From a virus (Duplodnaviria > Caudoviricetes), in the IMG/VR virus record IMGVR_UViG_3300036317_000036, positions 1 through 54,872 of that record: a stretch of DNA of 54,872 nucleotides. One strand, given 5' to 3'. Positions 4,108 through 26,348 of this stretch are shown one piece after another (within the stretch, counting starts at the first letter, position 1; every line of letters begins with the position of its first letter). Made by a program: the position numbers and the translations under genes. Below the pieces are notes generated by a model. The model was not told where the DNA came from. It was given only the letters and a program-made list of their open reading frames with translations, and made no database searches.

Positions 4108-4109
4108 GA

Positions 4110-6826: not shown

Positions 6827-7017
6827 CCAAGTTTACGTCTTTCCTCTCGTGCTATTTCTGCAATTCCGTCAAGGGCCTCGTCGTCCAGATCGAGATCCAC
6901 AAGCTCGCTGCGGAGCTCATCCCTTAAGTTCTTTGCTGCAGTTTCAGCGAATTCAAGTATGTAAGCCAAGTCAGTGCTTGAGATGTTGACTGTTGTTTCG
7001 ATCAGGTTGGCTGACAT
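6823..7017 (-). CDS. Small acidic hypothetical protein (64 aa)
   Basis: MSANLIET... fills the gap between the DUF2779-like gene and mrr; ATGA overlap with the mrr start; GAAGG upstream. Confidence 0.55.
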   Translation of the reverse strand: MSANLIETTVNISSTDLAYILEFAETAAKNLRDELRSELVDLDLDDEALDGIAEIAREERRKLG

Positions 7018-7028
7018 TTTTAGTACCT

Positions 7029-9020: not shown

Positions 9021-9035
9021 CAGTATCTCTCCCTG

Positions 9036-12000: not shown

Positions 12001-12293
12001 TGTTCCCAGTGGCAACGGAACCGGCCAGCCTGGGATTCAAAGAGTACTTCGGCGTAGCATTCACCGGTCTGGCGGGACATTATCTCATTCCCGCTCTTGG
12101 TGATTTTTCCGAGGCGGGGCGTGGCTCCATAGAGGGCCAGACAAATAGCGTCAAGAATTGTCGATTTGCCCGCACCGGTCGGACCGGTCAGAGCAAAGAT
12201 CCCGTTGGATACATATTCGGGATCGGTGAAGTCTATGACCCATTCACCATAAAGGGAGTTGAGGTTCTTAAATCTGAGTTCAAGTATCTTCAT
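9036..12293 (-). CDS. sbcC: SbcC/Rad50 ATPase
   Basis: GPTGAGKS, LLAQGGF, long coiled coil with CPLCGS zinc hook, LSGGE, FLDEGFGTLD, IISH. Confidence 0.95.
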   Translation of the reverse strand: MKILELRFKNLNSLYGEWVIDFTDPEYVSNGIFALTGPTGAGKSTILDAICLALYGATPRLGKITKSGNEIMSRQTGECYAEVLFESQAGRFRCHWEQRRARKKAEGNLQDQEHQIADDATGKPIETKKSLVGGVIEEKTGMDFDRFTRSILLAQGGFDTFLKADVEQKSKILEQITGTEIYSEISRRVHERQRDEREKLNILNAETSGIVILEPEQEKEIQDDLAAKQKQEAELAGKSTETGKAITWLTIIEGLQKEILSLTDEAAKLKTDTEAFKPERTKLEQAIKAASLDGTYASLTSLRKQQGDDQTSLKTDEAALPELESSANTQSESLKAAEQLTIKGKEELKTAAPLIQKIRSLDQKIAEQTKAVSEGADACTKETGKIETDKQARVKEQEKRTAAEKTLEVAELYIKENARDEWLVSGLAGVEEQLGNLLAKQRETTQKEAELKKADTAVADAAKKLEAATKQCGLKKQELESAGKNLQQGKDALSEILGDKLLREYRTEKETLLREMAFIRKIEELEDHRAKLEDGKPCPLCGSNDHPFAEGNVPVPDEIEQKIESLTKLIDKADEQEATIKKLEQAETAARKNLNDSEKLETEATNDKKAAEKTVAELKDALTKLRTGFDELKQAVSGKLQPLGITEIPEAEVESLLESLRSRLKAWQEQVKQKTDIEKQIAAIDSEVKRLDAVIDTQAKALAEKQETLERLKKELADGTEERKQLYGDKKPDDEEGRLNKAIADAEKAEKKARDLNTELQQKLTTAKTHIDSLKKRIEQRTPELKKAEADFSVALIPAGFADEKTFLEARLSQEDRESLSSRAKELDDAGTELKAKQKDRETRLATEIAKKLTDKTLEELQPQFKEFEESLKTLRDAIAGLKHKLNENTAAKERIKEKQSAIEAQKKECHRWEKLHGLIGSADGKKYRNFAQGLTFELMVSHANRQLEKMTDRYLLIRDEQQPLELNVVDNYQAGEIRSTKNLSGGESFIVSLTLALGLSKMASRKVRVDSLFLDEGFGTLDEEALETALETLSGLQQDGKLIGIISHVSALKERISTQINITPVSGGRSSLSGPGCTKVVKSE

Positions 12294-12304
12294 AATCAGC
12301 CTCT

Positions 12305-13543
12305 CTATTCCGCGTTGACGTCTTCTTCATGGAGAGACTTGATTATTTCGTTATAAGAGACCGTCAATTCCTCACGGTCTTCATCGGGCACCTCAAAAGC
12401 ATCCAGACAGCGGGTAAAAACATCTCCGGCATCCAGATCATCGAGGGTTTCATCTTCCGCGACCGTACTGATCACCCGGTCCATGACACGCCGGTTCTTA
12501 ATCCGCCTGATTTCCATGGCGGAGTCGGCCATGGCCTCATCGAGCATCTCGCGCAGGTTGCCGATGATGTCGCTGCCGGTGTATTCGATCTCAAGCCATG
12601 CGGAGCTTTCCTCTTTTTTAAGTCCCTCCAGCTTGGCATGGATATCATCCAGCGATCCGACAATGCGGACCAGCTCCTGAAAACAGGGTACAGGGAGTTC
12701 TTGGATATTTGGCGTGGTGCTGTTGAACTCTATGAGCACGACCTTCTTTTCCTGAGTCGCTTCGCCATAGCCCATTGGAATAGGCGAACCACAGTAACGG
12801 ATGTGTTCCGCGCTGCCGACCGGCTGAGGAACATGCAGATGCCCAAGGGCCAGATAATCAATTGACGGAGGAAAAACCTCCTCACCGACATGTGCCAGAG
12901 ATCCCACATAGAGTTCCCGGACCCCATCACCGTCAACGGTCTTACCGCCTGCCGTGAAGAGGTGTCCCATGGCAACGATGGGAATACCTTCATGCCCGGC
13001 ACGTTTGAATTCGGCCCGTTTCTGTTCAGCAATGGCGCAGACATCTGCGTAATGGTTTTTCAATCCTTCAACGAGCTTGGCGTTTTTATCGTCGATGGTT
13101 TCTCCCGGTTCAACCGTGCGGATATCCTTGTCCCGCAAATAAGGCACAGCGCAGACAATGGCCTCCGGCTTATCATCTGCGTGAAGAACAAAGACCTCAT
13201 CCTCCAAGGCTTCGGTCATTGAGCCGACCACATACACATTGAGCGCACGCAGCAGCTCCTTCGGGGCATTCAGAAATGACGGTGAATCATGGTTCCCGGC
13301 AATGACCACAACATGACGGCAACAGGATGCAGCCACACGGCACAGGAAACGATAGTAGAGCTCCTGCGCCCGGTTGCTGGGCGTGCTGGTATCAAACACA
13401 TCACCGGCAACCAGCAGAGCATCGACCTTTTCATCTTCAATGGTCTGGGTCAGCCAATCCAGAAACGCACTGAACTCCTCATAGCGTTTCCGGCCATAAA
13501 GGGAGCGGCCTAAATGCCAGTCTGATGTGTGGAGGATCTTCAT
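12305..13543 (-). CDS. sbcD: SbcD/Mre11 nuclease
   Basis: HTSDWHLG, AGDVFD, AGNHD, ALGHLH, YCGSP; adjacent to sbcC. Confidence 0.95.
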   Translation of the reverse strand: MKILHTSDWHLGRSLYGRKRYEEFSAFLDWLTQTIEDEKVDALLVAGDVFDTSTPSNRAQELYYRFLCRVAASCCRHVVVIAGNHDSPSFLNAPKELLRALNVYVVGSMTEALEDEVFVLHADDKPEAIVCAVPYLRDKDIRTVEPGETIDDKNAKLVEGLKNHYADVCAIAEQKRAEFKRAGHEGIPIVAMGHLFTAGGKTVDGDGVRELYVGSLAHVGEEVFPPSIDYLALGHLHVPQPVGSAEHIRYCGSPIPMGYGEATQEKKVVLIEFNSTTPNIQELPVPCFQELVRIVGSLDDIHAKLEGLKKEESSAWLEIEYTGSDIIGNLREMLDEAMADSAMEIRRIKNRRVMDRVISTVAEDETLDDLDAGDVFTRCLDAFEVPDEDREELTVSYNEIIKSLHEEDVNAE

Positions 13544-16125
13544 TGAGCCTCCTGCAAGGCTGGCGTCAAAGGTCTCTTTTTGAATTCTGCCTGCCAGTCT
13601 TTTAACGCGGTAAAGTCAGTTTCAAGCTCATCTGGTTCTGGCAGTGGAACTGGCGCTTCAAGTGGCTGGGAGTGTTCATACCTCGAATACTTGGTCATCA
13701 AATCGTCAAAGTATTTGCAGTCGGCTTCTGATATCTTGGCCAGATTGCCGATTTTCCCCATCGTATTTATTGCCCGACGGTATCGCTGAACAACGTCAGC
13801 GATCAGCTCGCACTCAATCATACGCTCTAGAAGGATTCTAAAATCACTGCAAAGTGCTTTTGCATAGGGCTCATAAACCTCTTTCCCGTGTTCATTCAGG
13901 AGTTTCTTTGCTTTTGAAAGTCGATCATTGATGAGTTGGTTGAGAGCCTTATCCGGTTTCTTTGCAAACAGCGGAGTATCACCCGGCTCCCCAGTCCCCC
14001 AAGATTCCTCCCGAATGCAAATAATTTCAGGCTCAATACTGACCTTTTTAGCATAATCCTGAACCATCCCTAAAAGTGAAAGGCGATGAGTGAATATGAT
14101 TACTTGTCGTTCGGAGGCAATAGCGCAGAGGCGTTGAACGACCGCCTCTTCATAATCCTGATCAAGTGATGAGATAGGGTCATCAAATACAAATGGGGCG
14201 GGATAGGTTCTACCTGTAACATCAGCAAGAAACGCCGCAATTGATACGATACGATTCTCACCTTCACTTAGAACTTCATTCAGGTTGTGGGCGGCTCCGT
14301 CCAGTTGAAGTGTATGGAGGACCTTGCCTTTTGAAACTTTGGATTTGATGAGCTTTACCTTGAGTCGAGATGCCCCTAAGGCTTTGAGCTCGTCGTTAAA
14401 CCGCTGAACAAAAGCATCCGTAATAAGCGTCTCTGCCAACTCTCCCTTTTTTGTGGATAAGGCTCTGGAGTTGGTTTTCTTTTTGGCTTCCTGAAGGCGT
14501 TCGAGTGACTGCAGGCGGTTTACCTCTTCCTGAATGGCTGTTTTCTGTTCAGCAAGCCACTTCTTTGCCTGAAGGTTTTTTAATTTGGCCTGCAGTTCAA
14601 CACGATTATCCTTTTCAGCATCTTCCTCATATTTCTTGGCGCTCTCCTCATAGCCTTTTGAAATATTCCGTATTTCTTCAATCCATTCAGGGGATTGGCT
14701 GGCGGTCCCCAAGGCATCTTCTGAGTCAAGTGACGGTACTTTGGTTTTCCTGTCTTGAAGAGAGGTGACTGTATCATTCAAAGCCTTGATGATGTCCTGA
14801 TTCTCAATCCCAGCAGCGTCGATTTTGGTTTTTAATGCCTCGCCACTGGGAATATCAGGCAGAGCATCAATTGCCTGTTTGGCCTCTCTGGCTGCTTCTG
14901 TGGCCTGCTTTTGTGTTTCACCTTTTATGTACGATTCAAAAGAGGTGAACCGTTGTTTGGCTTCCTCGGATAAAGGTTGGTGACAAAGTACACAAACAGA
15001 ATCATCCTGAACATGGGGAAACTCCTGTCCAGTGTATGCCACTTCTTCCGAATATTTTCGTGCGGCACTCCATAGCTCTTTCCAGACATCAGATCCAACG
15101 CCTTCGAGTTTTGCACCACTGAAAACATCTTTTGCAGCTGCTTCAGCGGCTGACTTTTTCAGAATCGATTTCTTTTTTGCTGCGATGATCCTTTTGCAAT
15201 TCTCATCAGACAGTTGGCTGAGATAAGCCTGTACATCCTTAACAAGGCCATCAGCATGGCTTTTTTTAGTCCTGAATTGCTTCGCTTTGTCAGCGGGGGA
15301 TGTCACAGAAATTCTTTTTTGAAGATCCCCAAGTTCTTTTTCATTTTCCGGCGAGAAAGAACAATGGGAATCAAGATCATCAGTCGTTGTTTTTGCGCTG
15401 ATTTTTTCAACCCAAGCCGATCCGGTGGTGCCGAGGAGAGCATTAGGAACGCTCGGCATTTTCGATTTTAATGCACCAGCCTCTGCATCAAGTTTTGCCG
15501 CTACTTTTTCACAGACATCGATCAGCCTGCTGAAAAAAGACAATACTGGAGGTTCATAGCTGACCTCATCTTCACTCCCCATAAACACCCGGCCAAACGA
15601 AGTATCAAAAATGTCAACGGAACAAAGGTCGTCACACACTCCCGAGCCTGCCCATTCATGTTCCGCTGGGGTGCTACTCTTTAGAAAGGAGACTTTTGCC
15701 TTCTGCGCTGTATCCTCTGGTGAAAACACATTTTTATGTAGTTGACCACGGATACAATCACGGGCTCCGCAAACATGCTTCAAGAGCCTGACATAGCCGG
15801 ATTTTCCGGAGCCGTTGTGGCCGTAAACAACGGCAACGTTGCTCTTACCGAAATCGAGTGGTGTCCGAGGAGCCAGCTTGTTTACCCCGGCAACCTCGCT
15901 AATGGAACATAAACGAATTTCTTCGGAATCATGCGCATCAAACGCCCCAGCGGGGATGCTACAATCGATATCAGGAAACTCATTATTGGCTTCCTGCTGA
16001 CACAATACTGCCAAATCAGAAATAACTGCATCATTCAGATCGCCGGATTCAAGCAGACGCTTTGCAGCGACCTGCAGCCACTTTGGCCTTTGTGTTAACC
16101 ACTCCGTTGTTGTTGAAGAAACCAT
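13540..16125 (-). CDS. RloC-like ABC/SMC ATPase with zinc hook and possible C-terminal HEPN-like domain
   Basis: Walker A GHNGSGKS, CVLCHQ hook in a coiled coil, LSEGE, FDDPISSLD, FTH; helical C-terminus ending ...KYSRYEH. Confidence 0.75.
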   Translation of the reverse strand: MVSSTTTEWLTQRPKWLQVAAKRLLESGDLNDAVISDLAVLCQQEANNEFPDIDCSIPAGAFDAHDSEEIRLCSISEVAGVNKLAPRTPLDFGKSNVAVVYGHNGSGKSGYVRLLKHVCGARDCIRGQLHKNVFSPEDTAQKAKVSFLKSSTPAEHEWAGSGVCDDLCSVDIFDTSFGRVFMGSEDEVSYEPPVLSFFSRLIDVCEKVAAKLDAEAGALKSKMPSVPNALLGTTGSAWVEKISAKTTTDDLDSHCSFSPENEKELGDLQKRISVTSPADKAKQFRTKKSHADGLVKDVQAYLSQLSDENCKRIIAAKKKSILKKSAAEAAAKDVFSGAKLEGVGSDVWKELWSAARKYSEEVAYTGQEFPHVQDDSVCVLCHQPLSEEAKQRFTSFESYIKGETQKQATEAAREAKQAIDALPDIPSGEALKTKIDAAGIENQDIIKALNDTVTSLQDRKTKVPSLDSEDALGTASQSPEWIEEIRNISKGYEESAKKYEEDAEKDNRVELQAKLKNLQAKKWLAEQKTAIQEEVNRLQSLERLQEAKKKTNSRALSTKKGELAETLITDAFVQRFNDELKALGASRLKVKLIKSKVSKGKVLHTLQLDGAAHNLNEVLSEGENRIVSIAAFLADVTGRTYPAPFVFDDPISSLDQDYEEAVVQRLCAIASERQVIIFTHRLSLLGMVQDYAKKVSIEPEIICIREESWGTGEPGDTPLFAKKPDKALNQLINDRLSKAKKLLNEHGKEVYEPYAKALCSDFRILLERMIECELIADVVQRYRRAINTMGKIGNLAKISEADCKYFDDLMTKYSRYEHSQPLEAPVPLPEPDELETDFTALKDWQAEFKKRPLTPALQEAQ

Positions 16126-16149
16126 TTCTATCTGCTCCTCATATCCGTA

Positions 16150-16620
16150 TCAATTTCCATTTTGCAATTTCCCTTCCGGCGTTGTTTCGGCTAGTCGAGA
16201 ATCCCCGGCAAGCCATTCAATAACTTGTTCTACGAACGGGGATGGATCATGCCGACAAGCATGAAGCGAGCACTCCCAAACTGTTAAGACTCTCCATTCA
16301 AGCTCCAGCAGGGCTTTTTTGCTGGCCACATCCCTGTCCCGGTTGCCTTCCAGTTTCTTTTTCCAGAACTCCTTGCGCGTGGCGGGGATTTTGGAGTTCC
16401 TGCATCCTTCATGCAGGTGCCAGAAACAGCCGTGTACAAAGATAACTGCTCTGAATTTCGACAAAACCAGATCCGGTCGTCCCGGGAGGTCTTTCTTGTG
16501 GAGACGGTATCTAATACCTCGGGCGTACAGCAGCTTCCTTAAGAGAATTTCCGGTTTGGTATTCCGGCCTTTGATCCTACTCATATTCCAGCTACGTTTT
16601 TCCCGGGTGATCCGATCCAT
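16150..16620 (-). CDS. vsr: Very short patch repair endonuclease
   Basis: MDRITREKRSWNMSRIKGRNTKPE, LPGRPD, FVHGCFWH, VWEC. Confidence 0.95.
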   Translation of the reverse strand: MDRITREKRSWNMSRIKGRNTKPEILLRKLLYARGIRYRLHKKDLPGRPDLVLSKFRAVIFVHGCFWHLHEGCRNSKIPATRKEFWKKKLEGNRDRDVASKKALLELEWRVLTVWECSLHACRHDPSPFVEQVIEWLAGDSRLAETTPEGKLQNGN

Positions 16621-16621
16621 C

Positions 16622-17449
16622 CTATCCTCCTTTACGTATGCAAAGGAGCTCATCGGGAGTCAGGGCGGGTTTGCGTCTGTGAAGCATTGCGTGGCAATTC
16701 GGACAAACCGGGAGAAGATCTTTTCCAGGATCGAGAGAATAACTTCCGCCCATCTCAGAAACCGGGACAATATGATGGACGTGAATAAAACCTTCGCCCA
16801 GCTCTCCGAATTGAGCACCGAAATCGAAATCGCAAATCCGGCAGGCCGTTCCGTGAATTTCAATACAGGCCGCCCGGTTGATTCGGCTCCTTTCATATTG
16901 TTTAACCAACTTGAGCAGCGCTGCACCTTCGCTTTCACCTTCAATTGCAGATTCATCAATTTCTTCAAGCGGGAGAAGCGCAAGAGCAAGACCGAAAAAG
17001 CCGGTTGCCCACGGAAAGGTAGCATCAAAATCATACCCTGATGACTTCTCTACAACAACACCAACCTTTTTCATTGAGATTCGAATGGTTCCCCAGTCAT
17101 TTGGCCAAGAAGATGGCTTAGATGCATCAACTTGCACAGAATCCAGTTCTAAAGAAACTTGGGCTCCTTTTGACTTAAGACTGTCTGAAAATACCGCGAA
17201 AGCAGCCTGTTGCGAAGGTGTTGCGGCTTTCATCCCGAGGACGAGTCCGGATGCATAGTTCCCTGGAATAAAAGCTGCTGAGACCGTCCTCCAGCCAAGG
17301 TGGAGCTCGACACGAAAGGATATGGTGCGCTCAATCCCACATGGGCCGATAATAATTTTTTGCCCGTTATTCTCCGCAGTTGCGCTTGCTTCCACTTCCA
17401 GACCAAATCGCTCTGTCAGAGCACGGGACAGATGTGCCGTATCAATCAT
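16622..17449 (-). CDS. HNH endonuclease (McrA-like C-terminal domain, unrecognised N-terminal domain)
   Basis: YERSRINR..CIEIHG..CRIC.FDF...IHVHHIVP...CPNCHAMLH. Confidence 0.88.
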   Translation of the reverse strand: MIDTAHLSRALTERFGLEVEASATAENNGQKIIIGPCGIERTISFRVELHLGWRTVSAAFIPGNYASGLVLGMKAATPSQQAAFAVFSDSLKSKGAQVSLELDSVQVDASKPSSWPNDWGTIRISMKKVGVVVEKSSGYDFDATFPWATGFFGLALALLPLEEIDESAIEGESEGAALLKLVKQYERSRINRAACIEIHGTACRICDFDFGAQFGELGEGFIHVHHIVPVSEMGGSYSLDPGKDLLPVCPNCHAMLHRRKPALTPDELLCIRKGG

Positions 17450-17454
17450 AATTA

Positions 17455-19053
17455 TCAGTCTTCCAGATCAGGTTCAGGAAGATCCTCAACCAGCTTTCTT
17501 AAGAGGCGTGAAACCTCGAAACGCAATTCCTCAAAATGGTTTTTTGTGGCTTCGTTGATTGTTCCAAGCTCTGCTTCGACCAAAGCCCAAAGCAGGGAGT
17601 CCATTCCTTGAACAGTCACATCAGATGCCAGGTTGGGAACATAGACCTTGTGGTAATAGGGATGGCCAGTGTTTACCCTTACTGCATGATGGCCGTCAAT
17701 AATTGCCGGAGCCCACAGGATTCCGTCATCAATGCTATCTGCCGGTTGCACACAAACCTGCCCGGGAGCCGTGGATTCGCTCACTTTCAATTTCAGGCGG
17801 ACTGTGCCGGATTTGTTCTTAACTTCCACATCACCGGCAGCAGGATCGACAACAGTGACTTCTGCTTTACGGAGATCCTGTTCTTTGCTTGAAATGGAGC
17901 GATTAGAGCCTTCATGGGCGTCTTTGGCCTCATCGCCAACCTTCTTGCGCTGCCCACGTCTGTAACGCTCGTTGGCCGCATTTCTCGGTGCTGGAAGAAA
18001 CTCGTTCAGAACCCAGTTATACAATTCTTCATTCAACAGAATCCGGGATTTTTTGATATCAACCTGGAATGCTTCATCTGACTCGTGGTTGAACGAGAAC
18101 TCAACCCTGAGAAGCGACAAGTGAGGCTCTTTTGTAAACATGCCCAGCCAATCGGCAGGATGAATAAGGCGGTTTTCCCGATAGATATAAATGCCCTGCA
18201 TGTTGTTTGTCAGGCGTGCACGTTTAGCAGATTCCTGAGAGGAGAAGTGTTCCCGTCGTGGGAGGACAAAAGCACGGATAGTGAATTCAACCGGGCTGCC
18301 GTCCGGAAGTTCGGCTTCGAGCATTTTTTCTGCAACAAGCTCGGTTTCACCTTCATCCTCGCAAAATGGGTCCCAAGGAGCAACTGGCTGTCCATTCAGA
18401 GTCATTACGATATTTCGCGAACGTTCATCGGTATCATTCAGGAAACGTTGATACACCATGGCTGCATGATCTCTGAATCCGGCCACAACCCTGTCCAATG
18501 CATTACGGGCATGCTTGCCACCCGGCTCAGAATAGTTCTTCATCATCCGGTCGACTTTGTCCCACATGACGAGTGTGCCGGATGAACTTGGAGCAACCTC
18601 GTTAAGCAGATCCTCTTCAAATTCTGTAGGAGCATCAAGAAGGAGCTCCCATTCTGAAGCACTGACCACATGATCGAGATCCCACGTAGCCTTCACCAAA
18701 CTATTTTCACCTGAACTGCGTGTGATAACCGAGAGCCTTCGGCAAAAGGCGGTGGATGCTGTCTTCAGACCAAGACCGAATTTTCCCAAGCGCTTCGGAT
18801 CAACACGTCCCTGCGCCCCATATGTCATTCCGTTTAAGAGAGCCTGCTCATCCATCCCGCAGCCATCGTCGGCAACAGAAACAAGAATATCTCCATCGGG
18901 GTCCATGTTGATCCTGATATCGATTTTTGTTGCACCGGCGTCGACAGAGTTGTCCACAATATCAGCAAGTGCAGTGTTGAAGTCATATCCGGTATCTCTA
19001 AGTCCTTCGATAAGGCGCGCCGGATTTGGAGGCAGAGTTTGTTTTCGCGTCAT
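17455..19053 (-). CDS. MORC-type GHKL ATPase
   Basis: LRDTGYDFNTALADIVDNSVDA, DDGCGM, LGKFGLGLKTAS, SGTLV, QGIYIYRENRLI, DIKKS, VNTGHPYY. Confidence 0.9.
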   Translation of the reverse strand: MTRKQTLPPNPARLIEGLRDTGYDFNTALADIVDNSVDAGATKIDIRINMDPDGDILVSVADDGCGMDEQALLNGMTYGAQGRVDPKRLGKFGLGLKTASTAFCRRLSVITRSSGENSLVKATWDLDHVVSASEWELLLDAPTEFEEDLLNEVAPSSSGTLVMWDKVDRMMKNYSEPGGKHARNALDRVVAGFRDHAAMVYQRFLNDTDERSRNIVMTLNGQPVAPWDPFCEDEGETELVAEKMLEAELPDGSPVEFTIRAFVLPRREHFSSQESAKRARLTNNMQGIYIYRENRLIHPADWLGMFTKEPHLSLLRVEFSFNHESDEAFQVDIKKSRILLNEELYNWVLNEFLPAPRNAANERYRRGQRKKVGDEAKDAHEGSNRSISSKEQDLRKAEVTVVDPAAGDVEVKNKSGTVRLKLKVSESTAPGQVCVQPADSIDDGILWAPAIIDGHHAVRVNTGHPYYHKVYVPNLASDVTVQGMDSLLWALVEAELGTINEATKNHFEELRFEVSRLLRKLVEDLPEPDLED

Positions 19054-19067
19054 ATTCTTCTCCCGTT

Positions 19068-19490
19068 CTATATTTTTACAACTTTCCATGAATTACTGAG
19101 CTTCAGCGGACCAGAGCCAATTTTTTTAACACCGTCTTTCTGATATTTCACCGAGTAAAAGCCATTTACATCCCTGGACAGAGTGAGTGTATCCCCCGAC
19201 TTAAGATTGTATGCATTCATATACCTGGTCATGCCGGTCAGACGATATTCGTTCCGGGTACCACCAAAAAACTTGTTGTTATAGTAGATGAAGGAGAATG
19301 ACCACTGTTCACCCATATGATCATGGAAGGTAATAAGGAACCTTGGATTCTTCTCCTCATTATTCAGCTCTGGAAAAAAGGACAGGATCTCTGGCTTTTT
19401 AGGGATGAGAATGCCAGCCTGATGTCCACCAGTTTCACCTGTATCATTGCGACTCAGCATTTTTTCAATAGCATTTGTTCTTGTTATCAT
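19068..19490 (-). CDS. Stand-alone EcoRII N-terminal-like (B3/pseudobarrel) DNA-binding domain
   Basis: KMLSRNDTGETGGHQAGILIP...YYNNKFFGGTRNEYRLT matches the EcoRII effector-binding domain; ATGA overlap with the upstream stop; no catalytic domain. Confidence 0.8.
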   Translation of the reverse strand: MITRTNAIEKMLSRNDTGETGGHQAGILIPKKPEILSFFPELNNEEKNPRFLITFHDHMGEQWSFSFIYYNNKFFGGTRNEYRLTGMTRYMNAYNLKSGDTLTLSRDVNGFYSVKYQKDGVKKIGSGPLKLSNSWKVVKI

Positions 19491-19882
19491 TGGACTCTCC
19501 ATTCTGAAATTCTGCCGTTGTAGTCGGGGTTTGTGCTTGGAATGAGCTCGCAATGTACATTGCCGTCTCGATCATAGCCGATCACGATATTGTCTCCCTC
19601 TGTAGCCATGTTCATTACGGGATTCCCCTGAAAATAGAGCCTGTACTCAGATCTTGTGGCGTGCGCTTCTCTGGCATCATACCAAGTGATAGCAGACTGA
19701 AATACTTGAGAATCTCCGCGAAGGGAGAACAAGGCTTGGAGTTCCAGCCTTGCCTCACCAAATATGCTTTTGAGCTGTGTTACGCCATTAAATTCATGCT
19801 GATTGGATCGGGCGGGATTAGCTTCAACGGCAGATAGAGTCTTTATACATGAACAACGGAATACCACTGGTTGAATTGACAT
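19487..19882 (-). CDS. Second stand-alone EcoRII-N-like DNA-binding domain
   Basis: KTLSAVEANPARSNQHEFNGV...TWYDARE...RSEYRLYF...GD, same fold pattern as its neighbour; RBS GAGG before MSIQP. Confidence 0.65.
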   Translation of the reverse strand: MSIQPVVFRCSCIKTLSAVEANPARSNQHEFNGVTQLKSIFGEARLELQALFSLRGDSQVFQSAITWYDAREAHATRSEYRLYFQGNPVMNMATEGDNIVIGYDRDGNVHCELIPSTNPDYNGRISEWRVQ

Positions 19883-19894
19883 AATTAGCACCTC

Positions 19895-19984
19895 TTATAG
19901 TAAAATCGGTTTCGTATTATTCTGAATATCCTGAAGTGGCAACTTCAGAGGAAATGTGCTCGTCTGGAAACTTGAGTTGATCAC
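19895..19984 (-). CDS. Possible 29-aa coupled ORF or gene remnant
   Basis: AAGGAG-N7-GTG overlaps the SNF2 stop; reads MINSSFQTSTFPLKLPLQDIQNNTKPILL* and fills the intergenic gap. Confidence 0.3.
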   Translation of the reverse strand: MINSSFQTSTFPLKLPLQDIQNNTKPILL

Positions 19985-21948
19985 TGTTTCACTCCTTTCG
20001 GAGTGTTGATTGGTGATAGCTGAAGTGCCCTTGCAATATCTGCGGTTTCCACCTCAGGAGCTTCGGTGCCAACTACAGCTACCTCCGCAAGTTGGCGTTT
20101 CCGATCCAAACGGTCGTTGATGACTTCTTCCACAGTATCTGGATAGAAAAGACGGTGGACAGTAACAGGCAGGATTTGGCCTCGCCGAAAAGCACGTGCA
20201 GTTGCCTGGTCCTCCACTGCCGGATTCCATTCAAGCGTATAGTGAATCACATGGTTGGCAGCAGTGATGTTCAGCCCTGTTCCCGCAGCCCTTGGGTTCA
20301 AAATCAGCACAGCAGAACCGGCAACAGCAGAAAAAGCATCGACCACTTCCTGCCTTTCTACTACAGGTGTTCTTCCATCAATTTGCCAGGATGGAATGGA
20401 GAAGCGTATTGGCAACTCACTGGTCAACAGATCAGACATAGAAATGAACGAAGTAAAGATGATAGCCTTTTCTTCGTTTAGAACTATTTCTTCAAGGATT
20501 TCGAGCAAACGACAGAATTTCGAGCTCTGCATTGGAGATATGTGTGCACCATTCGCATCTTCCTCCAAGAGGAGCGGATGAGTGCAGAACTGACGCAGGC
20601 GTAACAGGGAGATCAGAGTGGCAGACTTCCCGTATTCATCAGCGATCTGCTGCCTTATGAGATCATATTGCCCTATTTCGGCGTCACTCATATTGACCGG
20701 CTGCGGTATAATGATCTTCTCCGGAAGATCAGTGGCAACATCAGCAACTCTGCGTCGGAGCATGAGTGGGGAGACGACGGTTTCCAGCTTCTCCGCGCTT
20801 TGATAATCATCACCATAGGTGTGGTCAAATGCCTCGCGGGAACCTAACAGGCCCGGGCAGGAGAAGTCCATGATGGACCAAAGATCCGCCAGTTTGTTCT
20901 CAACGGGAGTTCCTGTAACAGCAATAGCGACCCGTCTTTTCAGTCCCTTGGCAGCTATAGCCCGGCGTGTTTCAGGGTTTTTGATCGCTTGGGCTTCATC
21001 CAGAACGACAAATCCCCACTCTATCATGCCAAAGAGCCCTTGATCCCTGACAGCTGTGTCGTATGAACACACAACAATATCATACTTCTTCAGTTGTGAG
21101 GGGAAGCCGGTACGTCCGTTGCCGGAATGGACATAAACCGTCATTCCGGGAGAGAATCGTGCAAACTCCCTTCGCCAGTTTTCAAGAAGCGTGGCCGGAG
21201 CAATAATCAGTGCTGGTTGATTCCATGCAACCTTGAAATAACTCAGAACAGCAATGACCTGAAGAGTTTTACCCAAGCCCATTTCATCAGCCAGAACACA
21301 TCCAAGCCCTTCTTCAGAAATACTCTTTAGCCAAGAAAAACCGTTTTTCTGGTAGGGGTACAAGTCGGCTTGGAAGCCGTTACATGAAAGGAGCTCCAGT
21401 GCCTGATCGCATCCACCATCGGATATGCTGCAGTCATTTGGCAGTTCTGATGCAGTTTCAACAGAAATCAATGAGGAATCCATCTTCGTGAGTTCCAGAG
21501 CCTGCCTGAGTGTAACTGGTCCTGAGACATCAGCCTTGATTTCATTCAGGATTGAGCGGATATCTTGGATGTTTTCAGGAATAAGCGGATACCAGCTGTC
21601 GTTGCCAACGATGATCTGGTCTGAGTGAGGCACCTGTTCAATGGAAAAGGAACGACCACCGGAAGAAGCACACAGTTCCACTGCCGGCCGCTGCAACGGG
21701 CTGGTCGGCATCCGGAGTTTTATTCTCAATTCACATGGGAAACGGTTAAAGCGAAGAACAGGCAAGTGATCTGACGGTTTTGCATCCACCACCACACCGG
21801 CAGCCTTCTGATACCCCTTGAATTCGACACGCACAATTTCTGCGGCGCTTACAGAACGCTGTTTTTTCGTAAGCTGTATGGCCACGACTCCATCTGAAAG
21901 TACCCAGTTTTTGAAGAGATCTTCTGTGTGTTCCCGCAGTTCCCCCAT
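19981..21948 (-). CDS. SNF2-family helicase/ATPase
   Basis: LYPYQ, LADEMGLGKT, LDEAQAIKN, TGTPVEN, GTGLNITAANHVIHY, WNPAVEDQATARAFRRGQ. Confidence 0.93.
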   Translation of the reverse strand: MGELREHTEDLFKNWVLSDGVVAIQLTKKQRSVSAAEIVRVEFKGYQKAAGVVVDAKPSDHLPVLRFNRFPCELRIKLRMPTSPLQRPAVELCASSGGRSFSIEQVPHSDQIIVGNDSWYPLIPENIQDIRSILNEIKADVSGPVTLRQALELTKMDSSLISVETASELPNDCSISDGGCDQALELLSCNGFQADLYPYQKNGFSWLKSISEEGLGCVLADEMGLGKTLQVIAVLSYFKVAWNQPALIIAPATLLENWRREFARFSPGMTVYVHSGNGRTGFPSQLKKYDIVVCSYDTAVRDQGLFGMIEWGFVVLDEAQAIKNPETRRAIAAKGLKRRVAIAVTGTPVENKLADLWSIMDFSCPGLLGSREAFDHTYGDDYQSAEKLETVVSPLMLRRRVADVATDLPEKIIIPQPVNMSDAEIGQYDLIRQQIADEYGKSATLISLLRLRQFCTHPLLLEEDANGAHISPMQSSKFCRLLEILEEIVLNEEKAIIFTSFISMSDLLTSELPIRFSIPSWQIDGRTPVVERQEVVDAFSAVAGSAVLILNPRAAGTGLNITAANHVIHYTLEWNPAVEDQATARAFRRGQILPVTVHRLFYPDTVEEVINDRLDRKRQLAEVAVVGTEAPEVETADIARALQLSPINTPKGVKQ

Positions 21949-21950
21949 GA

Positions 21951-23216
21951 TCAGCCTCTTTCTTTAAATGTTTTGGCTATTTCTTTAGCTGCAGAGCGGA
22001 TGGCCGGAACAACTACGCTATTGCCGATCTGTTTGTACGCTTGGGTCTTGGAGACCGGGAACACAAAGCGTTCAGGATCATATCCTTGGAGCTGCATTGC
22101 TTCTTCCACGGACAGTCGTCTTGGGCGGTCGCCTTTTTGCGCAATCAGGATCTCAGCCCCATCCTTATGGTACCTGGCGGAGATTGTCCTGGTAACAGTG
22201 TCATCGGCGATTGGAAAATGATGAATACCGTAGCCAAATCCATTTCCTTTAGCGGCGTGGTTTGCTTTGTGACGCTCCAGGGTATCCCATGTGCCCGGAC
22301 CGAGAGTGTATCCGGCAAGTTTTTTATGAATAATTGACGGTAGAGTCGGATAGCTGTATCCGGCTCCAGGTGCTCCAGGAATGATAATTTCATCCTTATC
22401 TATCTTGAGCTGCTTGGGATCATATCCAACAATGAAGATCCTTTCCCGGTGTTGTGGGACCCACTTTGCTCCGTCAACCACTTTCCAGTTGATCACATAC
22501 CCAAGGATATCTTCCAGTGCATGCCGGATTACTTCAAACGTTTCACCTTTGTTATGTGAGAGCAGGTTCTTCACGTTTTCCAGGATAAATGCCTTCGGGC
22601 GTTTGATACGAAGAATCTCTTTAATTTCAAAGAACAGCGTTCCTTGGGTTTCATCCTCAAATCCATGTTTACGTCCAAGCGAGTTCTTCTTTGAAACACC
22701 TGCCAGAGAAAACGGCTGACAGGGAAAACCGGCACAAAGCACATCGTGATCAGGGATTTCCTTTTTGGCTATCTTCCGGATATCACCATACGGGGCCTCC
22801 CCGTAGTTTGCCTCATATGTTTTTTTCGCATACTTATCCCATTCACTGGAAAACACACATTTGCCCCCCACATCTTGAAATGCTTGGCGGAAACCGCCGA
22901 TACCGGCAAATAGATCAATGAATGTAAAATCCCAAGCCTTTGGAGGAGGATATGGTAAACCATTCCAAGATAAAGAAAGCAGAGGTTGGTACGGTTCACT
23001 GTCTTCGGCTACTTTCCATCTGTCTTCAATTTCCTCTGGCTTGGTATAGCCCGGCAAAAGTTCGGAAAGGACACGTTTTTTGTGATATTCCGTAAAAAAC
23101 GGTGGAAGAGTATGGGGATATTGGAACCAATGCGTTAATGCCGCCCGAAGTTCCTTGCTCTCAGAACTTGATTCCAGTGCAGTGAGAGCTCTTTCTATAG
23201 CCAAATCATACTTCAT
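21951..23216 (-). CDS. dcm: DNA (cytosine-5)-methyltransferase, Dcm/EcoRII-like
   Basis: FIDLFAGIGG, AGFPCQPFS, ENVKNL, PQHRERIFIVG, GNSV. The TRD segment KGNGFGYG...RTISARYHKDG resembles CCWGG/CCNGG enzymes. Confidence 0.93.
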   Translation of the reverse strand: MKYDLAIERALTALESSSESKELRAALTHWFQYPHTLPPFFTEYHKKRVLSELLPGYTKPEEIEDRWKVAEDSEPYQPLLSLSWNGLPYPPPKAWDFTFIDLFAGIGGFRQAFQDVGGKCVFSSEWDKYAKKTYEANYGEAPYGDIRKIAKKEIPDHDVLCAGFPCQPFSLAGVSKKNSLGRKHGFEDETQGTLFFEIKEILRIKRPKAFILENVKNLLSHNKGETFEVIRHALEDILGYVINWKVVDGAKWVPQHRERIFIVGYDPKQLKIDKDEIIIPGAPGAGYSYPTLPSIIHKKLAGYTLGPGTWDTLERHKANHAAKGNGFGYGIHHFPIADDTVTRTISARYHKDGAEILIAQKGDRPRRLSVEEAMQLQGYDPERFVFPVSKTQAYKQIGNSVVVPAIRSAAKEIAKTFKERG

Positions 23217-23433
23217 TTCTTTTTCCTTCAGTCACATCGGGCTGTTGATCTGAAGCCGCGCCTCCAGCCTTAACCCATGCATCTACCTGATCTTTTTTGA
23301 ACTTCCACAGGCGGCCCATTCGGTGAGCGGGCATGCCGTGCTTATCGATCCATTTGTAAACGGTATCCTTACCGATACCGAGGTATTTGCATATTTCGTC
23401 CACTGACAACCAGCGATCATCTATTTCTGCCAT
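23206..23433 (-). CDS. Excisionase-family HTH DNA-binding protein
   Basis: WLSVDEICKYLGIGKDTVYKWI...MPAHRMGRLWKFKKDQVDAWV. Confidence 0.9.
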   Translation of the reverse strand: MAEIDDRWLSVDEICKYLGIGKDTVYKWIDKHGMPAHRMGRLWKFKKDQVDAWVKAGGAASDQQPDVTEGKRNEV

Positions 23434-23535
23434 GTCTCATACTCCTCTTGGGGGCTATTGCTTTTTGCCATGACCTCAACAGAGGCAGTTAAGGAATGCT
23501 GCAAATACAACACTCCCAAATTAATTCACCTTGCA

Positions 23536-23564
23536 AATATACTGATATGAACACCGGTTGTCAA
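23536..23564 (-). promoter_or_regulatory. sigma70 promoter of the defence operon
   Basis: Minus strand TTGACA-N17-TATATT, ~100 nt upstream of the HTH gene. Confidence 0.8.
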
Positions 23565-23573
23565 AAATTCTTT

Positions 23574-23591
23574 GCCGATTTAAGCCGATTT
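23574..23591. repeat. Direct repeat, candidate operator
   Basis: GCCGATTT twice with a 10-bp period, just upstream of the -35 box. Confidence 0.5.
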
Positions 23592-23598
23592 CGTTCTA

Positions 23599-24090
23599 TT
23601 ATGATGGATACCAGCATCCCGAGGCTATCCTCTCCGCATTATGGCCGAGCTTGTAATTGTACAGCCAAACGGGCCTGATCAAGTCGTTGGTCTCAACCGC
23701 CACCAGAACCCGTGTATAAACACAGCGACCATTCGGGTCGAATGCCTCCAGCCGATCTATGGGCGGCAGGTCGAAGCCGGGATTGGCGAAGGTCATCATC
23801 TCCCCGTGGACCAGATCCCAGTCGCCTTCGGGGCGGGTCATGGCATTTTCGGGGAGTTTGATGGTGTTCTGTATTCGGGTATCGGCCAGCGGATCGGCGG
23901 TGCCGATGGCCAGAACTGAGCTCTCCGGGACTTCCAAGGCCGGGAATCCGGCTGGCAGGTGGTAGAGCCTGCCCCAAGTGGTGGCGGGTTCGATGCTGAT
24001 GGCCCGGGTGCAGAACCGGTCAAAGTTCCAGAATCCCTTTTTCAGGGTTCCGTAGACAAAAAGCCGGAGATGGTTGTCGTTATTCTTCAT
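23599..24090 (-). CDS. Gamma-glutamylcyclotransferase (AIG2-like)
   Basis: LFVYGTLKKG, GRLYHL, VHGE, IDRLE, YTRV. Confidence 0.88.
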   Translation of the reverse strand: MKNNDNHLRLFVYGTLKKGFWNFDRFCTRAISIEPATTWGRLYHLPAGFPALEVPESSVLAIGTADPLADTRIQNTIKLPENAMTRPEGDWDLVHGEMMTFANPGFDLPPIDRLEAFDPNGRCVYTRVLVAVETNDLIRPVWLYNYKLGHNAERIASGCWYPS

Positions 24091-24884
24091 GCTTTCACTC
24101 CTTCGGGTAAGGTTCCTTTACGTTCCTGACAGACAAATCTGAAGGGATGGCTTTGCCACTCTTTGAGGGCTTCATGGCGGAAGGTCATCATGGTGAGCGG
24201 TGGTATTTCCAGCTCGCGCCAACCGTGCAGGTCATCCAGAGCGGCTTCGATGTATTCGGGTTCCGAGGCGTAGAGCACCGCCCGGTGTTTGCGGCTGTAA
24301 CGCAACGACAGCGGCTTGTTCCCCTTGATGACGGTAATGGCCCCGGGATCGAGCCGTGAGGCCATCACGGCGCTCATTTGGCCCCGACAAAGGCGCAGGG
24401 CTTTGCGGAAGCCTCTGCCGTCGATGGTTCCGTCGGGTGCAAAGCGATCGGCCAGCCGGAAAAGCAGCTCGCTGTCCACTTCGGCATAGCGCGGCAGGCC
24501 GAGCCTGCGGAACAGGTAATCGGCGTTGTAGATGGTGCCATTATGGGTGCCGATGATGATGCCGGAGCGGATCGGATGGTTGTTGCGGCTGTTGTCTTCA
24601 CTGCCCCGGGTACGCCAGCGGGTATGGCCCATGAGGATGGTGGTATGGTTGTCCACCTCGGCCATCAGCTCATGAAAGGTCGATTCCCTGACCAGCCGGT
24701 GTGCCCGGATGGGCCGTTTGAAAAGCCGGAAGTCACCGTCGGTTCGGAGCCATGCCATGCCGCTGGCGTGGGGACCGCGCTCCTCACTGCAGAGCAGCAT
24801 GCGGATAAAGACCTCGTTCAGGTATTCCCGCTCGGCAATGCGTCGTCGCTTCTGGCCGAAGATGATGCCTACTTGTCCGCACAT
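24087..24884 (-). CDS. Class II (Ntn) glutamine amidotransferase
   Basis: N-terminal MCG, RGPHASG, GHTRWRT, NNHP, HNGTIYN, DSE, YASE. Confidence 0.9.
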   Translation of the reverse strand: MCGQVGIIFGQKRRRIAEREYLNEVFIRMLLCSEERGPHASGMAWLRTDGDFRLFKRPIRAHRLVRESTFHELMAEVDNHTTILMGHTRWRTRGSEDNSRNNHPIRSGIIIGTHNGTIYNADYLFRRLGLPRYAEVDSELLFRLADRFAPDGTIDGRGFRKALRLCRGQMSAVMASRLDPGAITVIKGNKPLSLRYSRKHRAVLYASEPEYIEAALDDLHGWRELEIPPLTMMTFRHEALKEWQSHPFRFVCQERKGTLPEGVKA

Positions 24885-25210
24885 AGGTCATCCTCCTTGT
24901 CAAAGGTGTCCTCCTGCGGCAGGTCGATGAAGGCGTCATCCGGCAGAAACTCCACCAGTCCATGCTTTCCCAGCAGGGTCAGAAATTCGGCTGCGGCCGC
25001 TTCGGGATCTTCAGGCAGCTTGAGTTTCCGGTCCGGCTCGATGCGGCAGAGCACACCGAGCATGTAATCCCGGGCGGTCGCTTCGATGGTGAACGGCGTC
25101 TGGCCCTTCATGATCTCCACCAGCTCCGCGCAGTTTTTGCCTTCCAGAGCGATGCCGTCTGCCTCCAGCGGTTCGCCGTCCAGTGTCGTCGAGTGGATCA
25201 GTATCTTCAT
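24869..25210 (-). CDS. Acidic hypothetical protein in the amidoligase operon
   Basis: 113 aa, GGAGG RBS, overlaps both neighbours. Confidence 0.75.
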
Positions 25211-26169
25211 GATTCACCTCCTAAAACAGAAAGGCCGGGATTAGACCCGGCCTCTGTGGTTTGAATGGTGGTTTCGGTTTCATCCGGTTTGGGACGACCG
25301 TTCTTGAAGGCCGCGTCACCGGGCATGTTTTTCATCAGGTGTAATCGGGCGGTTTTGAACTCATCCCCGATCAGGCCGAGGTGGAGCAGGAAGACCCGGA
25401 AGTCATACTTGGCGCTTTGCGGATCGAAGTCCCGCTTGCGGCTGGATGCGGCCCTGCCGTTGAGCGCCTTGGCGGCGATGCCCAAGCAGAACTGCAGGTA
25501 GGCTTTGATCTTTCCGGCATGCAGGGTCGCCTCGAACCAGCGGAACTCCACCGTGCCCCGATACCAGACGTTGTGCAGGTTGACTCCGTGGTAGCGCGTG
25601 TTGTCGTAATGCTGGGGCTGGTTGTTGTGGTAGCCGTACCAGATTCGGTTCAACTGGGCCTTGGTCTTGGGCCGTTGCCGTTCGATGTTCCGGATAAGCT
25701 CATCACTGACCGGACGAGTGTAGCGGCGCAGGCGGTCGTTGTTGATTCCGAGGGCATGGAGGATCAGCGGCTCCTGTTTGTAAACCACCTTGGCAAGGTT
25801 GCCCAGTTTGCGCCCGTCGAAGGGTTCGGCGTCGATATGGATATGAATGCCGCACTGGCTGTTGATTTTTCCACCGGCCTTGCGGATGGCTCGAACCACC
25901 TCCTGCAGTTGCTCGAGGTCGTCATAGGTCAGCACCGGGCTCACCAGCTCCGCCCGCAGGTGCGATGGCACATTGGTCAGGGAGGCGTCGTTGACCACCT
26001 TCCACTTGCGGCCCCGCAGGTCCTCCACCTCCCAAGGATCGTAGCAGGACGGTGCGCCGATATGCCTGACATGGCCGCCAACCACCGAGTGGATTGCCCA
26101 GGCTATCTGTTCCCGGGTGCGTTTTACGGTCTCGATCTCGATTCCGTATCTGAGTTCTCTTAAATCCAT
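25207..26169 (-). CDS. Putative amidoligase (COOH-NH2 ligase, Amidoligase_2)
   Basis: YGIEIET, DASL, ELVSPVL, CGIHIHI, RYHGVNL, TVEFRWF. Confidence 0.9.
25223..25253 (-). terminator. Intragenic terminator-like hairpin
   Basis: AGGCCGGG-tctaat-CCCGGCCT followed by TTCTGTTTT, in the last codons of the amidoligase gene. Confidence 0.45.
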
Positions 26170-26348
26170 TCACAGTCTCCGTTTTACGGTTTCTAACTTG
26201 TTGCCGGGCTTGTGTTTAAGCCTTCAGCTTACATGTGAATGAATGCTTTAATTCCGTCAGAAAGCAAGTAGAAGAACAGAAAGAATCGACATTTAACACC
26301 TTTATTTTCAACATGTTACGATACTGGCCGCATTCAGGCGAACACATC

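Follow-up and report, generated by a model that had tools for sequence, protein, structure and literature searches.

Iyer, Abhiman and Aravind (2008; Biol Direct 3:8; PMC2292703) predicted three classes of prokaryotic MORC operon. In the second, MORC occurs with a helicase of the SWI2/SNF2 family and with nucleases of HNH or EcoRII-like type, and a DNA-binding protein of the VP1/RAV (B3) kind is sometimes present. Cytosine methylases and Vsr are, according to the same account, frequent in all three classes, and eukaryotic MORCs were derived from such bacterial systems. Here we describe a seven-gene cassette of this kind at positions 16150-23433 of a linear 54,872-nucleotide (nt) stretch of tailed-virus DNA (Duplodnaviria; Caudoviricetes), IMG/VR record IMGVR_UViG_3300036317_000036, which was analysed over its whole length and is hereafter called the window. 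Behind a helix-turn-helix (HTH) gene, the cassette encodes a Dcm-type methylase, a SNF2 ATPase, two small DNA reader proteins (smA and smB), MORC, an HNH nuclease and Vsr. By its gene content it belongs to the SWI2/SNF2 class of prokaryotic MORC restriction-modification (R-M) operons, within which it represents a recurrent subtype without an EcoRII nuclease and with a second reader, a dedicated stand-alone protein. We regard it as rather probable that the cassette is a mobile, ATP-dependent, multi-subunit R-M system carried as hotspot cargo by a tailed phage, with predicted methylation-sensitive restriction at CCWGG. New here are the definition of a four-gene core, a separate smA clade, reader-domain fusions, carriage in a phage hotspot and a contrast in CCWGG content between the phage backbone and the cassette.

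Together with the HTH gene, the cassette forms an array of eight co-directional, close-packed open reading frames (ORFs) on the minus strand. From the HTH_17/MAD1-like regulator (23206..23433; HTH_17, 4.6e-17; PADLOC mad1, 2.1e-15) onwards, the array encodes a Dcm-type C5 cytosine methyltransferase of 421 amino acids (aa) (21951..23216; PF00145, 4.3e-82), a 655-aa SNF2-family ATPase (19981..21948; PF00176, SNF2-rel_dom, 2e-59), smA, a stand-alone protein of 131 aa assigned to the B3/EcoRII-N fold by predicted structure and profile comparison (19487..19882), smB, a stand-alone EcoRII-N/B3 protein of 140 aa (19068..19490; Pfam EcoRII-N, 1.2e-19), a 532-aa prokaryotic MORC (GHKL plus S5) ATPase (17455..19053; HATPase_c_3, 1.1e-28), a 275-aa HNH nuclease with an N-terminal domain of about 160 aa followed by a McrA-like HNH domain (16622..17449; HNH, 4.2e-07) and the 167-aa very-short-patch repair endonuclease Vsr (16150..16653; Vsr, 1.2e-31). 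Successive junctions from HTH to Vsr measure -11, -4, +98, -4, +14, +5 and -32 nt. Reading of the DNA placed the smA start at the ATG at 19882, preceded by the ribosome-binding site AAGAGGTG, and the smB start at 19490, where its start codon overlaps the smA stop in an ATGA, whilst the MORC start most likely lies at 19053, because the longer ORF is matched by the MzaB profile only from residue 13 onwards. ORFs, domain searches and junctions therefore confirm the tight coupling behind an HTH gene and the family assignments made in a first-pass annotation of this DNA. The minus-strand array runs on unbroken into AAA_13 ATPase, sbcD and sbcC genes, so tight packing alone does not delimit the system.

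Each of the enzymes retains the features of its family. The MORC protein keeps the N-box, DDGCGMD and GKFGLGLKTAS, and its S5 motif, QGIYIYRENRLI, conserved with the GHKL boxes in 33 sequences, fits the GhXhhpXXRhl signature that sets MORCs apart from other GHKL proteins (PMC2292703); on these motifs it is assigned as a true MORC ATPase. Dcm is 45% identical to Dcm of E. coli K-12 over 366 columns, which include the PCQ and ENV motifs and the target-recognition region, and its specificity is thus probably CCWGG; Vsr shares 42% identity with E. coli Vsr. The SNF2 motifs GLGKT and DEAQ are kept across 26 relatives within a helicase core at about residues 195-640, preceded by a variable region of about 195 aa in which no Pfam match was found (residues 1-196). 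In the HNH protein, C203, C206, H225, H226, C249, C252, H253 and H257 (CxxC...HH...CxxC-H) are invariant in 25 sequences. Its HNH domain is homologous to that of EcoKMcrA (6ghc, 8e-10), and its sole PADLOC match is a type IV enzyme model (E 1.8e-06); EcoKMcrA aligns with residues 167-274 only. The N-terminal 160 residues were modelled confidently (predicted local distance difference test, pLDDT, about 90); Foldseek returned nothing below 1e-3 for this domain, a wide VIA-align comparison of residues 1-162 gave DUF1054-like proteins as the best fold matches, though their Z (7.2) does not rise above the noise, and a protein atlas gave just one lead (score 0.76). The component family is large: when 1.84 billion representatives were searched with its profile, 5032 proteins matched at E <= 1e-30, and the best 150 relatives almost all have lengths of 270-300 aa and align from end to end.

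The cassette thus unites in one neighbourhood a MORC with the S5 motif, SWI2/SNF2, HNH, B3, cytosine methylase and Vsr, as in the second class of Iyer et al. (PMC2292703). The first-pass annotation had put it forward as an undescribed system and had taken MORC operons usually to include a Z1 helicase and a PD-(D/E)XK protein; the former does not hold, since the gene set is that of the second class, and the latter combination is one of the three classes (PMC2292703). The account of 2008 is a comparative prediction without experiments, and the stand-alone smA family, the layout in two gene pairs, the fusions and the phage carriage are not described in the parts of it drawn on here. Full-text literature searches, with subscription papers and REBASE outside their scope, found no experimental study of the system and no name for it, and neither PADLOC 2023 nor NCBIfam 2026 holds a model that names it. 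For the cassette, PADLOC returned, as had been anticipated, partial hits only (matches to DrmD-like, DrmMII-like, MzaB, mad1 and type IV models).

Comparison with better-known systems separates the cassette from each of them. EcoRII (type IIE) is likewise accompanied by a Dcm-type methylase and Vsr, and its N-terminal effector domain shares the fold of smA and smB; in the window, by contrast, each reader is a protein of its own, and the nuclease, accompanied by ATPases, is of the HNH type. No EcoRII-C domain (PF09019) was found in the cassette proteins, a tblastn search of the window with three EcoRII-C domains gave a best E of 0.018 over a short stretch in a tail gene, and the same Pfam model scored 6e-63 in a related locus, L012. 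Mza systems, going by the model names in PADLOC and NCBIfam, comprise the GHKL ATPase MzaB with partners that include a Z1 helicase and AIPR. The window MORC is a partial match to MzaB (PADLOC 2.4e-54), but its NCBIfam score of 199 bits stands against an equivalog cut-off of 850, and the window holds no Z1 helicase, AIPR or other Mza gene. DISARM requires DrmA, DrmB and DrmC, its class 2 adding a SNF2-like ATPase and a C5 methylase. The cassette shares the latter two (weak DrmD matches; DrmMII model, 2.5e-120), but none of DrmA, DrmB or DrmC was detected by PADLOC among the 23 window proteins scanned, and the PADLOC and Pfam scans together bear out the earlier statement that the window lacks both the DISARM core and a Z1 helicase. 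MADS is an eight-gene operon, mad1-mad8 (PMC13662399), of which the window offers only the MAD1-like HTH, at 79.4 bits just short of the NCBIfam cut-off of 80, and ABC-type ATPases that match mad3 and mad8 weakly. DISARM, Mza, MADS, Zorya and Dpd were all set aside on the PADLOC and NCBIfam scans. With EcoKMcrA and other type IV HNH enzymes the cassette has a homologous HNH domain in common, but the N-terminal domain of the window protein did not match the McrA reader domain and a gene of the window type is always linked to a methylase. MORC, SNF2, B3 and C5 DNA methyltransferase are also the families of eukaryotic methylation-linked silencing, which this class, a prediction since 2008, unites in bacteria; this is a resemblance of parts rather than membership, the eukaryotic pathway having no nuclease.

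To place the cassette among its relatives, one genome per species was scanned with the MORC protein, which gave 259 relatives and 80 retained loci, and the window proteins were mapped onto these 80 loci, four viral contigs, one plasmid and further loci found through smA. A set of 40 loci was defined by MORC identity of >= 45% and coverage of >= 80%, with the duplicate L090 dropped and the distant cassettes L093, L094, L097 and L104 falling below the threshold. Among these 40 loci, HNH was present in 39, smB in 38, Dcm in 36, SNF2 in 35 and Vsr in 33, and an EcoRII-C nuclease in 19. Most absences fall at contig ends: of the four Dcm-less loci, three have a contig boundary at or inside the module, and in the fourth the contig stops partway through Dcm. 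HNH directly follows MORC in 38/40 loci and smB directly follows SNF2 in at least 29/40, whereas the order of Dcm and Vsr relative to this core varies between loci. In L014 and L031 the order is Dcm-MORC-HNH-SNF2-smB-Vsr, and the persistence of both pairs in these permuted loci suggests two sub-modules, such that the four-gene core SNF2-B3-MORC-HNH would be built from SNF2 with smB and MORC with HNH. Hosts spanned Thermodesulfobacteriota, Kiritimatiellota, Planctomycetota, Verrucomicrobiota, Bacteroidota, Bacillota and Pseudomonadota, and the module was also found on plasmids and viral contigs. Co-occurrence elsewhere, on which the first-pass proposal depended, is therefore well documented, and the genes behave as one conserved unit.

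Several individual loci bear directly on the composition of the unit. A Thermodesulfobacteriota metagenome-assembled genome (L001) carries a collinear 10-kb block, 88% identical, that corresponds to window positions 12976-22962, and a Burkholderia plasmid holds the seven-gene content of the window in another order (smA-dcm-vsr-MORC-HNH-SNF2-EcoRII-N). In L004 and the viral contigs L083-L085, six genes occur in the order of the window without smA and without any EcoRII-C gene, so that HNH is the only nuclease there. Comparison with L001 and a further relative, L002, shows all seven cassette genes to be intact and subject to purifying selection. In L006, L010, L011 and L015 (4 of the first 33 loci) the MORC cassette is bordered by AIPR genes, and the AIPR protein of L006 ends in a GreA/GreB C-terminal domain.

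The two small proteins were proposed at the outset as stand-alone EcoRII-N-like readers, and both assignments are upheld. A profile built from 24 smB relatives matches the EcoRII N-domain, whose structure was solved with cognate DNA (3hqf, 2.5e-16; 1na6, 2e-15), with plant B3 domains near 1e-8. For smA, no match was found in Pfam, NCBIfam or PADLOC, and its sequence profile had none among PDB sequences at E up to 10. An AlphaFold2 model from an 11-row alignment (pLDDT 78.4; predicted template modelling score, pTM, 0.75) gave as its best Foldseek PDB match the EcoRII N-terminal effector domain 3hqf (E 2.5e-4, TM 0.54), followed by BfiI, UbaLAI-B3, the LlaJI.R1 N-domain and plant B3 domains. Profile-profile comparison of smA with smB relatives likewise gave a probability of 79% (E 1.6e-5) over 112 columns.

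Sequence resembling smA also forms the N-terminal ~120 aa of a ~405-aa protein in L007, L012, L018, L019, L021, L026, L028 and a Marinobacter plasmid, the C-terminal half of which is Pfam EcoRII-C (6e-63, 5.5e-66). An origin of smA as a truncated EcoRII remnant, which would have undermined the initial interpretation, was rejected on three grounds. The gene is exactly 131 codons long in the window, L001 and L002 despite saturated synonymous divergence (pS 0.83-0.87; pN 0.21 and pS 0.87, saturated, against L002). Stand-alone relatives are abundant, with 494 of 496 candidates of 72-230 aa matching at E <= 0.001, amounting to at least 494 clusters; the best 120 are mostly 127-136 aa long and 53-97% identical. 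Finally, in a quick maximum-likelihood tree of 98 rows (31 stand-alone proteins and 67 fused N-domains), 29 of the 31 stand-alone rows form one group apart from the fused N-domains (SH-aLRT 95), the exceptions being L114 and a fragmented gene of L005. The window protein lies within this group beside L001 and L002 (SH-aLRT 97), and stand-alone and fused copies from one locus fall into different groups. Sources of the stand-alone proteins include Aeromonas, Vibrio, Pseudomonas, Serratia, Citrobacter, Pectobacterium, Shewanella and Massilia, among others. None of the best 120 carries a precomputed Pfam domain, so these clusters bring to light a family outside Pfam coverage, and NCBI often names its members 'type II restriction endonuclease' though they lack a nuclease domain. 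Longer relatives number 1821, and among the 120 listed, 118 carry EcoRII-C and 2 carry PIN_8. The two latter proteins, P0123 and P0124, are the closest long relatives of smA (60-63% identity; ~455 aa) and join an N-terminal PIN_8 to a C-terminal smA-like domain, a reader-nuclease pairing unlike that of EcoRII.

From these data smA appears as a member of a large, old and separate family of ~131-aa stand-alone proteins that accompany Dcm genes. Among 24 loci with a full-length stand-alone smA (L090-L113), Dcm lay within the fetched DNA in 21; a complete EcoRII-type nuclease was also present in 9, a MORC cassette without EcoRII-C in 6, and only Dcm was seen in 6, some of them on short contigs. 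As smA occurs beside Dcm with either type of nuclease, it follows the methylase rather than one nuclease, with variable position and strand relative to Dcm. We tentatively suggest that these proteins may constitute an unrecognized class of trans-acting Dcm-site readers, long maintained as a separate gene beside Dcm whatever nuclease cuts, which could govern the timing and place of restriction, for instance by activating or inhibiting it in trans or by sensing the state of methylation. The notion that smA is a CCWGG-binding autoregulator of its own promoter was unsupported: the 200 nt upstream of 25 stand-alone smA genes contain 1 CCWGG (0.2 per kb, vs 2.15 per kb across loci) and gene position varies, the scarcity of sites being weak evidence either way because these upstream regions are AT-rich.

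Fusion proteins connect smB-like readers with each enzyme of the core. A search of longer proteins for an smB-like domain yielded 26 matches among 224 candidates. The reader stands at the C-terminus of a SNF2 helicase in P0245 (783 aa) and in the fragment P0243, and at the N-terminus of the whole HNH protein, including its N-terminal domain, in P0244 and P0246 (436 aa) and P0247 (296 aa), with P0244 matching the HNH profile over positions 3-278. In 13 clusters it is joined to GHKL ATPases of about 840-920 aa and in 6 to EcoRII-C; the remaining matches are one EcoRII-N alone and one protein with acyl-CoA dehydrogenase domains, taken as an artefact. That the reader is found joined to all three enzymes in turn is evidence of a classical kind for joint action of the four proteins. 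The proteins P0249-P0262 (~840-920 aa) combine an N-terminal EcoRII-N/B3 domain, HATPase_c_3 and a C-terminal HATPase_c, and are possible counterparts of the histidine-kinase-like paraMORC relatives described in a 2020 preprint on paraMORC-linked domains, a study of a different GHKL family.

The distribution of CCWGG along the window offers a further line of evidence. Of 31 sites in all, 14 lie within the 7.3-kb cassette, where 17.3 would be expected, indicating no avoidance, whereas the other 47.6 kb contains 17 against about 118 expected (Poisson P about 1e-31). Structural genes hold 10 sites vs 69 expected, sbcCD 1 vs 11.1 and AAA_13 0 vs 5.7. This strong depletion implies long selection in the backbone to avoid CCWGG, which fits pressure from EcoRII-like or MORC-type systems, and since CCSGG is not depleted (237 observed vs 211 expected) it points to CCWGG rather than CCNGG. 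The cassette has not undergone such selection, in keeping with a recent arrival of genes that are constantly accompanied by their own Dcm; these site counts give indirect support to the predicted target motif.

The window is a whole viral record with an estimated CheckV completeness of 20%. Myovirus structural genes (tail sheath, tube, tape measure, baseplate and major head proteins) occupy 24-55 kb, whilst 1-24 kb has lower G+C and carries defence-type genes: REase-ARP with ADP-ribosylglycohydrolase, McrB- and McrC-like genes, HARE-HTH with Mrr, DUF2779, sbcCD, AAA_13 and the cassette. A sister phage record (L171) matches the window at 509-741 and 1754-6811 (92-93% identity) and at 23273-26311 (90.5%). 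Between these shared flanks (L171 12737-20959) it encodes a type I-like R-M system, consisting of HsdM, a 265-aa protein, a 1086-aa DEAD helicase and HsdR, where the window has DUF2779, sbcCD, AAA_13 and the MORC cassette. Shared flanks with different contents identify ~6811-23273 as swappable cargo, with the HTH gene as the fixed leader of the hotspot. An HTH 84% identical to that of the window precedes the type I-like cargo of L171, and the window HTH was not found beside the cassette in any other mapped locus; it is therefore not specific to the cassette. Taken with the CCWGG contrast between backbone and cassette, the presence of different R-M cargo behind a common HTH in the sister phage illustrates how such systems are gained by phages.

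Following Iyer et al. (PMC2292703), and in view of the gene set, its recurrence, the fusions and the homology of the CCWGG-related pair of Dcm and Vsr, a restriction mechanism for the cassette is a reasonable inference. Dcm would methylate the CCWGG sites of the carrier and Vsr would repair T:G mismatches arising from deaminated 5-methylcytosine, whilst the four-gene core, SNF2 with smB and MORC with HNH, would attack DNA that bears unmethylated sites. In such a scheme smB would recognize the site as the EcoRII effector domain does, SNF2 would translocate along the DNA, and a MORC dimer would clamp or compact it and license the McrA-like HNH to cut; smA, working in trans, would provide additional reading or modulation at those sites. 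If trans-acting readers do work with a motor-driven MORC-HNH pair, the system could attack site-poor DNA such as the CCWGG-depleted phage backbone. As a compact, intact, phage-borne copy, this seven-gene locus yields clear predictions in its two gene pairs, its HNH active site and its CCWGG target.

Several observations weigh against this interpretation. A complete EcoRII-type nuclease stands beside the module in 19/40 loci, so the module may assist that enzyme or act otherwise. The antiphage role of prokaryotic MORCs is still termed 'proposed' in a 2026 preprint on Tiamat. The HNH domain resembles that of the modification-dependent McrA, and its N-terminal domain has no convincing fold match. 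Constraint on smA is looser than on its neighbours, though still purifying (dN/dS against L001 of 0.31, vs 0.04 for smB, 0.10 for MORC and 0.08 for HNH). On a phage, moreover, the cassette might serve mainly through its methylase.

This last point can be developed into an alternative, which we judge unlikely, in which the cassette is mainly an anti-restriction methylase: Dcm would guard the few CCWGG sites of the phage from EcoRII-like or MORC systems of the host, with the nuclease genes as passengers or directed at rival phages or the DNA of the host. The viral nature of the record, with its myovirus structural genes, the long exposure to CCWGG-directed restriction implied by the site-poor structural region and the placement among swappable cargo all agree with it. 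A lone methylase would, however, be enough for protection, whereas here all seven genes are intact and under purifying selection with their catalytic motifs kept, and the nuclease genes are co-directional with Dcm and packed tightly against it.

Somewhat more doubtful again is the proposition that SNF2-B3-MORC-HNH is not the restriction half but an auxiliary machine for EcoRII, Dcm and Vsr, either bridging distant sites for EcoRII or giving MutL-like support to Vsr. Besides the EcoRII-type nucleases in 19/40 loci and the association of stand-alone smA with Dcm alongside either kind of nuclease, it can draw on MutL, a GHKL ATPase that works with Vsr in E. coli (as cited in PMC2292703). Against this, EcoRII-C is absent from the window and from 21/40 loci, including the compact six-gene forms, the HNH catalytic residues are invariant and Vsr is missing from 7/40 loci.

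A modification-dependent (type IV-like) or abortive system, in which the McrA-like HNH attacks modified foreign DNA and Dcm is a mere neighbour, would account for the closeness of the HNH domain to EcoKMcrA and for its sole PADLOC match, but is very improbable given Dcm in 36/40 loci with all four exceptions at contig ends, the overlap of the window Dcm with neighbouring genes and its shared orientation with the rest, and the attack that an enzyme cutting 5-methylcytosine DNA would make on its own carrier. The weak fold matches of the HNH N-terminal domain include no SRA, EVE or McrA-type reader fold.

Further features lie within and around the array. Upstream of the HTH gene, a sigma-70-like promoter-like site, TTGACA-17-TATATT (23536..23564, minus strand), matches the consensus at 11/12 positions, a consensus match only. 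The 98-nt SNF2-smA spacer contains an inverted repeat, CTGAAG-N6-CTTCAG (19931..19948, minus strand), which in L001 reads CTGAAA-N6-TTTCAG, with both arms altered and the inverted symmetry kept, in a comparison of two informative sequences only. No RNA family was detected in the window by Rfam at the gathering threshold, no tRNA by ARAGORN, and no match to the cassette by megablast against E. coli genomes.

Elsewhere in the low-G+C region, positions 760-6826 carry a REase-ARP nuclease with ADP-ribosylglycohydrolase, McrC-like and McrB-like (AAA_5) proteins and a HARE-HTH plus Mrr_cat protein (PADLOC PDC-S02), so that McrB/McrC/Mrr-type modification-dependent nucleases share the element with Dcm. 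Adjacent to the cassette, an 861-aa AAA_13 ATPase (13540-16125) is an end-to-end match to the PADLOC candidate system PDC-S06 (E = 0) and is followed by sbcD-like (12305-13543; 4-nt overlap) and sbcC-like (9036-12293; 11-nt gap) genes, both below the NCBIfam equivalog cut-offs; the block that the window has in common with L001 at 88% identity takes in AAA_13 and part of sbcD along with the cassette. At the far end of the window, a DNA methyltransferase gene (53892-54842; phrog_27806, 5.9e-154) is cut by the contig end and covers the last 320 of 798 profile positions. On its upstream side the hotspot is immediately bordered by a cluster of amidoligase, class-II glutamine amidotransferase and GGACT genes (23599-26169), conserved at 90-94% identity in four related viral contigs.

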